The notes under the pieces were generated by a model. That model was given only the letters and a program-made list of their open reading frames with translations. It was not told the DNA's origin and ran no database searches. Of a stretch of DNA of 64,000 nt, positions 763 to 64,000 are shown in pieces. The position numbers were made by a program, and so were the translations under genes. Source of the stretch: Eledone cirrhosa (Eukaryota); NCBI GenBank assembly GCA_964016885.1, contig OZ024747.1, positions 19,902,001 to 19,966,000 of the forward strand. The letters run 5' to 3'. The stretch's first letter is position 1. Each line of letters opens with the position of its first letter.

Positions 763-1060
763 AGTGTTATATTTGGGGAGGGTCATATTTGCGTAATATT
801 GCCAGAATTAATAACAGAACACACTCACTGTTTGGTTGGTTTTCGCTTCTCGCTGTCTTTTATATATATATATCTGCGATCTAACTTACTCGGTCCTCAA
901 TGTTGCCATTGACTGACCGGCGGTCAAAAATAATACAGATACAATATAGACAAACACATATATATATAGTTTACATAATATACATAAATCTTTCGTTGCA
1001 CATCTGCAACATCGTCAGTGGTGTTATATTCATTGTTCCTCCTGTTGTGTTGTATAAAAA
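763..1060 (-). mobile_element. Family E PLE-type terminal repeat with hammerhead-like core (983-1020)
   Basis: Reverse complement aligns with about 54630-54901; core CTGACGA-TGTTGCAGATGTGCAAC-GAAAG; flanked by (TA)n. Confidence 0.75.
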
Positions 1061-1767
1061 ACCTCGCAAAACTAATTCATCGCCGCTATCTATATATACA
1101 TATCTATATATACATATATATATATATGTGTGTGTGTGTGTGTCTATGTATGTGTGTGTGTGTGTGTGTGTGTGTGCGTGTGGGTGTGTGGGTGTGTGTG
1201 TATACATATACATCATTTATGCACATATGCATATATGTATGAAATTATTTATGTATTTTCAAATATAAACTTAATTTTCTAATAAGTATTTGAATATACA
1301 TTGTTATTTTGTTGAAGCTATATTTAACTATTTGTGTATATAAATTCTAGAGAGAATAGTAAATATACACAAACAATATAAAGACGACTATAGATAATAT
1401 GTAAATACACTTAAATCTCAAGGATCAAAAAATTCCCTGAAGATTTGACGTTACTTATCATAGAATGTCTAAATATATTCATAACATTTAATATCTAGTT
1501 TTTGTAGGTGTTATATCGTTTGTATATTTTCTCTGTTTATTGATTGACTTTTGATACTGTTTAGAGATTGAATTTCTGTAAATTTTATTAATATTTATTT
1601 TAAAATATATTGTGCATTGTATGTTTTGTAGATAGCTCAACATAAATCATAATAATCATTTGTTTATTGGCCACATCTGATACATACAATACTGAAAAGT
1701 ATCATACAAAACATATGCTGTTATACGTATGAATTCTAAATAGATAGTGGGGGCTGAATGCATGATC

Positions 1768-1870
1768 GCCGAGGTTGACTTTGCCTTTCATCCTTACGGG
1801 GTCGATAAAATAAAGTACCAGTAATGCACTGGGTAATTGCTGGCCTTGTGCCTAAAGTAGAAACAATTAT
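1768..1870 (+). mobile_element. SINE family A, 5'-truncated
   Basis: Matches the consensus GCCGAGGTTAACTTTGCCTTTCATCCTTACGGGGTCGATAAAATAAAGTACCAG...GGCCTTGTGCCTAAAGTAGAAACAATTAT seen about 20 times in the window. Confidence 0.9.
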
Positions 1871-2157
1871 GTGTACTTCCATAATTGCGGAAAATTGTAA
1901 CTCATCCAATCATGTGGGAAAGTTGATAAACACGTAGACATTAGCAGAATTCCTGAAATGTGTGTTGTCCTAAATTTCTCGAAAGCAGAGTCGTCCATAC
2001 CTGAGCTGCAAAGAGAAACATTGTTGGGGCTGTGACTTTCAAAAAGTATCAATCATATATGGGCGTTAAGGTACCCGTCCTAAAGACCTCGACGATTTAG
2101 CTCCAAATTCAAATGAAATAAGCTAGTGTTTTCCTATGGAAGGCTAATATATATATA

Positions 2158-2262
2158 ACTAACGAAGGGAGTGTGGTAAGGAACCAGGTGGACCATAACG
2201 CAGCAGAGTACTCGATACTAAGGGTAGTAGAGCTCAGCCGTCGGGGTCCTTACCTGTTTCCT
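2158..2262 (-). mobile_element. Family C (TA)n-embedded element, internally deleted copy
   Basis: GTGTGGTAAGGAACCAGGTGGACCATAACGCA..AGAGTACTCGATAC shared with 17277-17460, 19488-19660, 49690-49778 and 59020-59210. Confidence 0.8.
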
Positions 2263-61037: not shown

Positions 61038-62338
61038 CTACATTTTAAATTTAAATTTATATTTAAACGTTGAGTTTAATCTATGTTTGCAACAACTGAA
61101 TAAATTTGTCCGTAGGTTAAGGGAATTTTTAGATTTTAGTATAAAGAATATCTCCTCTGTGCAGAGGTCACATGTCTCAGAGGATGAATTAAAAGGAATC
61201 CCTCTTGAGACTATATTCCAAGCCGTCGAATATCTAACGTTATCTAGCTTAAGTTGCCAGAGTACGCCTGATAGTGCCGTTGAAGATTTTTTACTTGGAT
61301 CCGTGAAAGAATTCTTGTGGTTATTATAGCGAAGTTTAAATTCCGTCGATGTGGAACCGACGTAGTTAAAAGAATTAGAGTCAGTATTAACATTACAATT
61401 GTATACTATATTTTTAACTAAGCAGTTGTTATTTAACGGACATTTAGATCTATCTCTACAGTTACATTTGTTAACTTGTATATTATTTATGCTATTATCA
61501 CTAGGTTTTAAGTTCCTATTATTTATTCTATTAATATTTTGTGCTAAATTTTTGGTGGATGAGTAGGTTAATTTAATTGTATGCCTATTGAAAATTGAGT
61601 GATACCTATGTGTTCTAGGGAAGCGATTATCAAGAGCTTTGAAAAATAATTTAGCGATGTGGGTTTTAATGTTTAGTGAGAAGGGGGGGGGGGGCAAACC
61701 AAATTATGTTCCTAGTTCTATTTCTTTTTTGGCCTTTGGAATTATTGTAATGCTTTCTATTATAGTTGTTAATGTTGTTGCCGTAATTAAAAAAGTTGTT
61801 ACTTTGTTTAGTTTGTCTATCATTATCTATGTACACAATCTTATCAGCATATCCTGCCCTAGCTAATGCTTCATTATAGTATTGGGCCTTTTCGTCGAAA
61901 ATCTTTCTATTCGACGAGATCCTAGAGATACGTTTTTGAACTGAGTTTACTATAGTGTTTTTGACAGATCTGGGGTGGTTAGAGTTAAAGTTGACATAGT
62001 TTAAGTTTTCATTCAACTTGTGAAAAGGATAGTGGAGACATGTGTTGAGATTTAATGTTATATCTAGGAAATTGACTATTCTATGGTTGTTCTCAATTTC
62101 TATTTTAAGGTTAAAGTAATTAAAAAATTTTGTAATTTGTTTACATTTTCTATTTAGTTCAGGGTTATTATTATTAATAAGTAAAAGCATGTCATCCCTA
62201 TATAAACCTCCGGTAGTACCAGGTATTTTCCTATGTAGCGAATTGATTAAAAATAAGCCCACAAGGTCAGTTACCTGAGCTGAGTCGGAAAATCCCATAG
62301 TTATGTCAAAATTACTATTTCTATCTGCTCTGGTCCAT
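61038..62338 (-). pseudogene. PLE RT (C-terminal motifs and thumb) plus GIY-YIG endonuclease, 5'-truncated, frameshift at the G-run 61683-61694
   Basis: FDITMGFSDSAQVTDLVG, GGLYRDDML, VNFLDITLNL, SNHPRSV, IIWF, CNCRDRSKCPLNNNC, NIVY..NYVGSTSTEFKLRYNNH and CDLCTEE..LNLR..CKH. Confidence 0.93.
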
Positions 62339-63722
62339 AATTTTTGATTCCTTCTTTTTATTCTTTTTTTATTGTTTATTTTTATTTTATATTTATTTTT
62401 ATTTAAACATTCCTCATGAAAAATTAAGCTACCCTAAAAGCTGATGCTCCAATTATTTTGAATAAACCTTACACTAGATAAACTCCTATATTAAATATAA
62501 GAACATATGTAGACCAAATTGGACGTCATAAACTTTTTGAAATGATCTTTGCTAGATGTGATTTGATAGATAATTTTTGGCTTTGTCTTGTAATGAACTT
62601 GGCAATATATTGTCAATTAACTTTGAAGGGTTGATCTTTGTGGTTTATTTTTATTTTTATCTTTTATTATTGTAGTATTTTATAATATATTTTATAATAT
62701 TTTTTATTTTTATTTTTATTTTTAATATCTTTAATATGTAAATTTTTAATACGTAATATTTTTTAATACGTAATATTTTTTAATATGTAATATTTTTATT
62801 ATGTAATATTCTTTCGTAATATTTTTTTAGTTTTCTATTTTATTATTACTTATTTTTACTTATTATTATTATTGTTATCTTTTTATTTTTTTAGTTTTGT
62901 TTCTGATATATATTTTATTAGTATATTGAAATCTGCTCTCTATTTCTGCTTGATAGATAATCTTGTAGAGTAAAGACAGGAATAATAATACACATATATG
63001 TATGCTCAAATTTTTATACCACATTGAGAATGTTTTCCGTGAACTTAGAGTTTGCAGAGTGAATCATGTGGATTCGCATGGATGTTTGTAGCTGTCACAT
63101 AAACATATGAATTTTTTTAAAAAACTAAACATAAGATAATTAATTTTCACACACTATGGATACTTGTCTCATTCAGGAATACTGATATTTACAATATAGT
63201 GTAAGTTTTATAAATACTAATACATTAAAACATAGGGTTTTTACGCCTCGAATATATCTGGCTATTTTTAAATTTTTTTTCTCTCGCTATTTTTTCTCTC
63301 TATATATTTTTTTCTCTCTATATATATCTCCCTTACATTAATACTTGAGCTAAATAAATAAATAAATAAATAAATGTATCATTGATACATTTACTCAAAA
63401 TGACCTCCCACTACCTAATTTTCTATATATATATATGTATTTATCTCTATTTCCTCTCTCTCTCTATATATATATATCTTTCTGTTTCTTTACATGAAGT
63501 TCTTCGCTTTATCTATCTTTTCATCTCTCTATTTTGTTCCATGCATTTCTTCTTTTTCTTCCTTTTCTTCCTTTTCTGTCTTTCTTTCTTTTTTCTCTCT
63601 TTTTTTCTCTCTTTCTTTCTCTCTGTGTAAAATTGCTTCACTGCCAGCTTAAACCTCTTCAAATGGAAGTCGGTGTTATAACGGTATGTCGAATCTATTT
63701 ATCTATAAAACTGTTTATATTG

Positions 63723-63787
63723 TATTTTGTCTGAGGAAGGCATAGCATATGGTAATATGATATCCCCGAAATATATATAATGAAATA
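63723..63787 (+). ncRNA. Type I hammerhead ribozyme in the PLE 3 pseudo-LTR; mirror copy at 59483-59547 (-)
   Basis: tattttgt CTGAGGA agg..catat ggta atatg..ccc GAAA T ATAT ATA atgaaata. Confidence 0.82.
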
Positions 63788-64000
63788 AATATGGTTTTAT
63801 AAATATAGTTTCCATTTATTTAATATTGTAAATATACTCCAAATATTTGTCGAGTGCTTTTATATCAGTTATAAATATTTACTAGTTGTAACCCAACAAT
63901 TTTAAATATAACTTTCCATATATATATATATATATATATATATAAACGATATATGAATATATACCAAATGAATAGCAAATGATATGTAGCATTAGCTCCA

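Follow-up and report, generated by a model that had tools for sequence, protein, structure and literature searches.

We analyzed a 64-kb window of the Eledone cirrhosa genome (assembly GCA_964016885.1, 3.0 Gb; contig OZ024747.1, positions 19,902,001 to 19,966,000, here G000:C7:19902001-19966000); unless a sample locus is named, coordinates below are positions in this window. The DNA is AT-rich, and runs of four or more TA dinucleotides make up 6.3% of it, compared to 5.4% of a genome sample. Embedded in the (TA)n tracts are islands that carry hammerhead ribozyme motifs, remnants of the open reading frames (ORFs) of Penelope-like elements (PLEs), and fold-back structures. We consider it likely that these islands are the 3' ends of Hydra-clade PLEs and of their non-coding derivatives, with reverse transcription starting 6-8 nt upstream of a bulged RNA hairpin that is present twice in each unit. 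Hydra PLEs, their hammerheads, TA targeting, tails, inversions, the U3:A8 core variant and PLE-derived retrozymes are all known already. At the core of these results stands an element of a known kind, present on an unusually large scale; the paired hairpin, the rule for long and short ends, and the density are the new part.

Hammerhead motifs in the window and in the genome

The initial annotation, made from the window alone, listed 23 sites with hammerhead-like motifs. A strict type I descriptor (CUGANGA, stem II, GAAA, stem III, UH, and a stem I of at least 4 bp) found five matches, at 10701 (-), 22202 (-), 22390 (+), 55463 (-) and 55745 (+). Each of the five falls at a listed site; 30 local dinucleotide shuffles of the window gave a mean of 0.03 and a maximum of 1. 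When each listed site was compared with copies of its family, all core nucleotides were found to be kept at 17 of the 23 (983, 10660, 12321, 16651, 16838, 22146, 22382, 22757, 25058, 26249, 48156, 48826, 54662, 55389, 55740, 59483 and 63723), three of them as a U3:A8 variant. The core is lost at the other six: GAAA is broken at 5790, GAAA and loop III are deleted at 15418, the core has point changes at 17021, 58249 and 29207, and at 9468 it is non-canonical in 12 of 12 copies. Strict matches are far above chance, about a quarter of the listed motifs are broken, and of four sites put forward as intact three are so (10660, 22382 and 55740) and 15418 is not.

Related copies among the collected loci that satisfy the strict descriptor were counted for several families, whose first-look candidates (416 to 3,387 per family) are lower bounds. 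Sites 5790 (1/1 relatives passing), 15418 (30/37), 17021 (8/13) and 58249 (7/13) are decayed copies, since their relatives satisfy the descriptor; no relative passes for 983 (0/21) or 29207 (0/14). Several intact cores are set in unusual stems. Site 16651 is of the minimal type with a 1-bp stem I, 54662 has a complete core and a weak stem I, and the family of 25058 and 22757 has a stem II of ~90 nt and a 1-bp stem I in all 14 segments compared. The U3:A8 core, known from Schistosoma PLEs (PMC4209133; here and below, statements on published work refer to the portions of each source that were available), occurs at 12321, 26249 and 48156. It is constant across all family segments compared (13/13 for 12321) and has five further occurrences in the genome sample. 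Core, three helices and palindromic loop III of a type I hammerhead are present together at the five strict and at two U3:A8 window sites. Other core pairs (G3:C8, A3:U8, U3:G8 and C3:A8) were rejected as not above shuffles, and 18 U3:A8 matches in L105 and L090 were dismissed as minisatellite artefact or chance.

Rfam reported zero hammerheads in the window at the gathering score, its only matches being two tRNAs, and at E<=10 there was no hammerhead among the 150 matches listed of 349. Element ends of this kind are thus likely to be under-annotated, Rfam having missed every hammerhead in the window. The initial list also lacked a 5'-truncated motif at 58974 (-), for which 8 of 16 relatives pass, and several element ends that carry no hammerhead. 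For ten motifs the z-scores of single-strand folding were weak (-2.3 to +1.4), which is what dimer-type motifs should give, and no support was drawn from them.

The genome was sampled systematically in 59 stretches of 10 kb at round coordinates (590 kb, 37 stretches on the four largest contigs). The sample contains 38 strict matches, whereas each of ten shuffles contained 0-1; the excess over shuffled controls anticipated for the motif counts is found at both scales. Fourteen of the 38 lie in three tandem arrays with units of 310, 310 and 482 nt; counting arrays once leaves 27 loci, or 46 per Mb (46-64 per Mb for intact-core motifs in the sample). By extrapolation, the genome holds ~137,000 independent hammerhead loci (Poisson range 90,000-200,000). 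The axolotl genome is about ten times larger than the present one. It carries the largest hammerhead total that we found in print, 126,247 (PMC7229834), which the density in Eledone rivals; our literature searches found no description of a density of this order. Minimal PLE hammerheads described by Cervera and de la Pena in 2014 (PMC4209133) share with ours a short palindromic helix III, an extra stem II base, the U3:A8 variant and opposite-strand pairs 100-700 bp apart, but they number 2,000-9,000 per genome, compared to an extrapolated ~10^5 here, where long branched stem II forms also occur.

A TA tract of 8 nt lies within 250 nt downstream of the cut site in 36 of the 38 sample matches, compared to 22% of random positions. 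Array tracts are internal sequence; among non-array matches the figure is 22 of 24 against the same background, so the association with (TA)n suggested by the window extends genome-wide. An upstream tract was seen in 18 of 38 matches, and distances from cut site to tract peak near 40-60 and 90-145 nt. Some 30 sequence clusters have conserved the core and the palindromic loop III (33 clusters when settings are relaxed, some of which are likely due to chance). The number and structural variety of the very large, diverse ribozyme repertoire attributed to this genome are therefore borne out; the word "ribozyme" overstates the case, because the motifs are known from sequence and two young families without a proper stem I or a canonical core still spread.

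Hydra-clade elements, their ends and a bulged hairpin

Three ORF remnants were found in the window, at 8072-9397, 23488-24492 and 61041-62349. A search with one of them gave 43,496 first-look candidates, and many of the 150 scored lie in open frames of 738-745 amino acids; one intact natural copy is at G000:C2:45668202-45671867 (L189). Natural frames of 738-749 amino acids form a single ORF with a YRDD reverse transcriptase (RT) followed by C-terminal GIY-YIG-like endonuclease (EN) motifs, and carry RWR/RWK, DKT, CxCx5C, CxxC and CxH. RWR/RWK and DKT occur in both full-length ORFs, a third piece lacking the N-terminus having RWR in its DNA; the CxCx5C linker occurs in 3/3 ORFs and 3/3 window remnants, and CxxC and CxH, flanking conserved E and N, in two of three ORFs, the third copy stopping earlier. 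The Pfam GIY-YIG match was weak (E 0.01), and the full ORFs gave zero Pfam or PDB matches. The three ORFs are mutually 42-52% identical, and Hydra-like coding DNA accounts for 1.6% of the sample, in 7 of 59 stretches.

The same combination of a single RT and C-terminal GIY-YIG ORF with RWK-like, DKT, CxCx5C, CxxC and CxH motifs, a type I hammerhead toward the 3' end, a preference for inserting into (TA)n, and tandem and inverted copies was reported for the Hydra clade by Craig et al. in 2021 (PMC8557442), who already included Hydra-1_Obim of Octopus bimaculoides, with a hammerhead and (TA)n preference. In Eledone a canonical hammerhead lies near the 3' end in the 10660 and 63723 families (63 of 74 relatives), and partial tandems, an inverted truncated copy and a tail at one end are present (L244-L248), the tail being longer than the 30-40 bp described. 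Units of 3.1, ~3.9, 5.3 and 5.9 kb exceed the descriptive trait of being "generally short (<3 kb)", because of long 3' untranslated regions (UTRs). The diagnostic motifs thus support assigning the remnants to Hydra-clade PLEs, and a PLE origin with Hydra-type insertion into (TA)n, as first suspected, agrees with the TA flanks of the 22 of 24 non-array matches.

Six listed sites from four families (5790, 10660, 22757/25058 and 59483/63723) are 3' ends of ORF-bearing families. The 5790 end belongs to a 5'-truncated Hydra element at 5745..9397 (-), with the RT/EN remnant 8072-9397, a 3' UTR, a decayed core at 5831 and a short end at 5745; 5741-8867 matches continuously at 90% in sample stretch L086. 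At 10530..12002 (-) lies the 3' end of an autonomous family (unit 5.3-5.9 kb) with an intact core at 10701, a tail at 10530-10613 and the bulged hairpin of the short end (HP1), with flanks, at 10579..10622 (-). The reading of 10530-12002 as a defined ORF-less element was rejected, since the stretch proved to be 3' UTR belonging to a family with an ORF. The claim that most of the elements are ORF-less found no support in that form: among the families followed to their 5' ends, only the 55740/15418 type was shown to be non-autonomous. This type is a non-coding unit of 522 nt found in tandems and fold-backs, with a longest frame of 59 amino acids in the 389 nt checked and no tblastn match to Hydra ORFs. 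A related unit at 15265..15785 (-) has its hammerhead without GAAA and loop III, and hairpins at 15326-15371 (HP1) and 15731-15773 (HP2, the hairpin of the long end).

Non-coding tandem arrays with one type I hammerhead per unit occur with units of 310, 482 and 522 nt, and arrays with canonical compact hammerheads resembling typical non-LTR (long terminal repeat) retrozymes were seen in L082, L086 (310 nt), L128 (482 nt), L049 and L070. Animal non-LTR retrozymes (Cervera and de la Pena 2020, PMC7229834; Li et al. 2026 preprint) likewise consist of non-coding units in tandem, every unit carrying a single type I hammerhead, and a PLE origin has been proposed for them, and PLE-derived retrozymes are already described (bioRxiv 2026.07.22.740005). 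Unlike these, the 522-nt unit combines short and long ends of the PLE type with both hairpins, fold-backs and TA flanks; judged by this structure it is a direct link between retrozyme-like units and a Hydra driver. Two cephalopod repeat papers (PMC13282606, PMC8967140) mention Penelope and, in the text available, neither ribozymes nor Hydra.

Element ends fall into two classes. A short end lies ~50 nt past the cut site, and a long end, which includes a tail, 55-150 nt further. The tallies were read from the flanking sequences of individual copies. All four window fold-backs, the existence of which the initial annotation had predicted correctly, combine one short and one long end. In the fold-back at 22100..22575 both hammerheads are intact, the one at 22202 (-) belonging to the short end and the one at 22390 (+) to the long end, and HP1 lies at 22482-22523. 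The fold-back at 22703..25254 derives from an autonomous Hydra family with a 3.1-kb unit and carries an EN-coding remnant at 23488-24492 (+), HP1 at 25139-25190, and cores at 22873 (-) and 24981 (+), both with a long stem II and a 1-bp stem I; a stop codon thought common to this family was rejected, as other copies read through it. The 522-nt family forms the fold-back at 55215..55870, with intact hammerheads at 55463 (-, long end) and 55745 (+, short end) and HP1 at 55297-55342. The largest, 59434..63918, belongs to an autonomous Hydra family (unit ~3.9 kb) and has cores at 59539 (-, short end) and 63731 (+, long end), a frameshifted RT/EN remnant at 61041-62349 (-), and HP1 at 63822-63863.

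Genome fold-back pairs, located by tail-free queries and with both ends visible, were mixed in 13 of 13 cases (seven in the 10660 family, four in the 26249 family and two in the 25058 family), a result with a chance of ~1e-4 if ends were 50:50; two 26249-family loci did not enter the count, L170 because its orientation was not visible and L177 because it is interrupted. The internal end of tandem copies is of the long class and continues into the following unit. Our literature searches found no description of a strict pairing of one long with one short end, which these flanks suggest. Two unrelated families are joined head to head at 9393-9397 with a 5-nt overlap. The left arm is the short-ended element 5745..9397, and the right arm is a truncated, long-ended copy at 9393..9778 (+) with the non-canonical core at 9469-9475; a fixed 5' end of the 9468 family at 9393 was rejected, as other copies reach further. 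A second two-family join may be present at 16790..17270, where two ends meet head to head with cores at 16925 (-, long stem II, complete) and 17026 (+, GAAA mutated).

In all four families in which both ends can be seen at a tandem junction, a bulged hairpin sits 6-8 nt to the 3' side of each, HP1 following the short end and HP2 the long end, and is preceded there by 1-7 nt of UA microhomology. It consists of an R-Y-U-C stem, a 2-4 bp inner stem, a variable loop, a 2-nt bulge beginning with U, and G-A-R-Y. The spacing stays at 6-8 nt while the tail varies from ~85 to 130 nt. In 16 aligned hairpins, 89.6% of cells are paired, two-sided changes occur in four of six pairs, and covariation is 0.521, compared to 0.265 when shuffled and at most 0.176 when slid. 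A covariance model run on 30 of the 59 sample stretches (300 kb, two training sources left out) gave 21 matches at E<=1, where ~3 were expected; 17 of the 21 had a TA tract within 130 nt downstream against a background of 12%, and about half were training families, the others being new. In the window the model recovered HP2 of the 15418 unit and ends without a hammerhead. The same fold was seen by eye in three of six published Hydra consensi, at the 3' ends of Hydra-2_Amil (coral) and Hydra-2_Ajap (sea cucumber) and twice before the ORF of Hydra-1_Ajap. We found no description of a paired hairpin at fixed spacing in the literature searched, including hairpin and stem-loop terms in the available text of PMC8557442 (0 matches); this literature excludes reports in Repbase, papers behind subscriptions and the figure supplements of PMC11167929 and PMC4209133, which may be relevant.

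Two further kinds of copy were observed in the sample and window. A 259-nt tandem unit with a tRNA-like gene (9788-10195, 58399-58662; L254-L267; tRNA-Ser CGA by ARAGORN) has 944 candidates at ~99% identity and shows the short and long ends of PLEs as well as fold-backs and TA flanks. Instead of the bulged hairpin, another short motif recurs immediately 3' of each of its ends. No hammerhead was found in the unit, which is possibly a PLE-driven short interspersed element (SINE). The full-length Hydra copy L193/L251 (G000:C4:270380019-270383684) shows 78 A>G against 3 other changes in its ORF, with 76 of the 78 confined to the final 620 nt, and the 3' UTR adds a further 22; A after G is spared (3/27, compared to ~38% after A or U). 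It looks like an ADAR-hyperedited fold-back RNA copied back into the genome. Only one such copy was seen among 30 ORF loci and ~330 family segments, and a literature search found no matching report.

A proposed priming model and its alternatives

In the reading that we favor, each strand of a TA tract likely receives a nick from the element's RT-GIY-YIG protein. The protein would dock on the hairpin, the TA primer would anneal to the UA-rich stretch just upstream, and copying would begin. One strand would prime at HP1 and give the short end, the other at HP2 and give the long end with its tail, resulting in an asymmetric fold-back. Because the hammerhead cut site falls between the start and the element body, the template would have to be an uncut multimer or circle, and cleaved linear monomers could not serve. 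The two arms overlap in sequence, so copying would draw on two RNAs or on consecutive units of one multimer or circle; two-RNA templating fits the head-to-head join at 9393-9397, a single case. The huge hammerhead count would follow from the position of the motif ~50 nt upstream of the first start, where it is copied first and so retained in the shortest cDNAs. The hammerhead probably trims tandem transcripts as a dimer, through its palindromic loop III, and is probably dispensable for insertion, and any hairpin-bearing RNA would be mobilised in trans.

The closest experimental parallel is the Poseidon PLE of Anolis (PAc; Frangieh et al. 2024, PMC11167929). In vitro its protein nicks and extends both target strands and begins reverse transcription at two internal positions that bound the tail; RNA 3' of these starts is required, and hammerhead mutants still insert; an AT-rich target and a hammerhead upstream of the starts are further likenesses. 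PAc belongs to another clade, however, and starts in an AC-rich stem-loop inside the ORF, and no duplicated cross-family hairpin 3' of each start was found described in the portions available.

Several points weigh against a hairpin-primed Hydra origin. The clade assignment is drawn from diagnostic motifs and from a similarity, judged by eye, of the RT and of the ORF C-terminus to published Hydra sequences. The 16 hairpins were picked by eye from related families, so the shuffle control overstates significance, and 10 of 96 alignment cells are unpaired. A rigid hairpin descriptor matched 13 of 28 long-ended motifs, seven of the 13 lying at another place within a single array family, and missed point-mutated copies. 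The hairpin was not clear by eye in the consensi of Hydra-1_Obim, Hydra-1_Amil and Hydra-1_Crog, nor in the 16651, 12321, 9468 and tandem 482-nt families, and the 983/54662 family has no clear second hairpin at its tandem junction; families without the hairpin may use another driver. Finally, in D. virilis the Penelope tail is needed for EN recognition, as cited in PMC11167929, which fits a role in DNA.

An alternative close to the emphasis of the initial annotation, which we regard as rather unlikely though more probable than the other alternatives, gives the hammerheads the central role: as active ribozymes under selection they would drive mobilisation by way of circular RNAs produced by self-cleavage, for the most part in ORF-less, retrozyme-like elements. 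It would account for the conservation of cores and loop III across ~30 clusters, for U3:A8 as a compensatory core pair and for the 310-, 482- and 522-nt tandem units, and animal retrozymes do make circles (PMC7229834); for the array families such a cycle is compatible with the priming model. It sits poorly with the spread of the young 25058 family (copies 99.5% identical, 1-bp stem I) and 9468 family (99%, non-canonical core), with the 6 of 23 sites in ORF-bearing families and with the insertion of PAc hammerhead mutants (PMC11167929). We judge it improbable that the hairpin acts instead in DNA, as a recognition site for the endonuclease or host repair, the two ends arising from a cleaved integration intermediate rather than from two RT starts. 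Most hairpin pairs are Watson-Crick, Craig et al. attribute the tail to EN-mediated resolution (PMC8557442), and the D. virilis requirement points the same way; but genomic short ends keep no hairpin, the bulge is one-sided, G-U pairs occur, and the genomic ends of PAc coincide with RT start sites (PMC11167929).

It is more doubtful still that the hairpins are transcription or translation signals, close to the ends only as a by-product of an old duplication. HP2 does lie 20-30 nt before the ORF start in three families and in Hydra-1_Ajap, yet HP1, which lies 90-130 nt further upstream, has been conserved with compensatory changes, the non-coding 522-nt unit retains both hairpins, and the end spacing is constant while the tail varies. 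Chance similarity in DNA that is rich in AT and in repeats can be dismissed as the source of the motifs, being already refuted for the strict set by the counts in window and sample and by control cores at 0-2 (G3:C8, A3:U8 and C3:A8), even though with two core mismatches allowed the signal is lost (window 2, shuffles 2.75) and a 32-nt minisatellite (L105:7670-8260) imitates the U3:A8 descriptor.

On the priming model, a wider claim can be put forward tentatively, and we hold it with less than even confidence. The hairpin would belong to a portable priming code shared across phyla: it would dock a telomerase-like RT and set the start point 6-8 nt upstream, once per strand, with a dimer able to load two different RNAs. 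Any RNA with the signal, be it retrozyme-like, tRNA-bearing and SINE-like, or ADAR-hyperedited, would be written into TA repeats, which would have made this genome the densest known hammerhead carrier and may feed its TA content. The hairpin, more than the ribozymes, is what makes these elements of interest. In PLEs, the sister group of telomerase, start-site choice and the one-end tail have been addressed in one in vitro system, and a short conserved RNA element at constant distance from both start points, together with natural compensatory variants and near-identical intact ORFs, makes priming directly testable.

Remaining elements of the window

The other hammerhead-bearing ends are smaller. 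U3:A8 elements lie at 12126..12417 (-, site 12321, bulged stem I), 26205..26427 (+, core 26252) and 48120..48327 (+, core 48159). An older family of ~92% identity at 15785..16772 (+) has a minimal hammerhead at 16656 and no Hydra ORF match, and the end at 48790..48980 (+, boundaries approximate) has a core at 48831 with one stem II change, 4 of 5 relatives passing. Decayed or truncated motifs are found at 29170..30056 (-, site 29207, boundaries approximate), at 58012..58350 (+, core 58254, short end) and at 58664..58974 (-), a remnant truncated within the core and related to the 482-nt tandem type. The 983/54662 family is represented by a fold-back remnant at 763..1090 (-, core 1018) and a copy at 54330..54900 (+, core 54664, 5' boundary approximate), both with a weak stem I. 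Together with L140-L151 these copies show more than two preferred ends, which suggests three or more start points.

Hairpins outside the training set mark two ends without a hammerhead, at 26531..26588 (-) and, in a small fold-back end, at 54936..55196 (+, hairpin 55046-55101). Another such end, at 59079..59221 (+, hairpin 59121-59166), belongs to a family also seen at 2147-2232, 17326-17457, 19488-19656 and 49678-49779. A GC-rich palindromic family (19556-19657, 17279-17457; five window copies) likewise ends in TA and has a hairpin and no hammerhead.

A broken non-LTR retrotransposon, presumably R4/Dong-like, occupies 39477-42102 (-), with RT, CCHC and restriction-like endonuclease motifs and a weak zf-RVT match. 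One abundant SINE family has at least 20 copies in the window, among them those at 1766-1870, 3629-4099, 13569-14041, 17633-17824, 21413-21622, 31239-31440, 35116-35810, 43797-44242, 48339-48550, 49380-49565, 50809-51005, 52102-52238 and 56982-57114.

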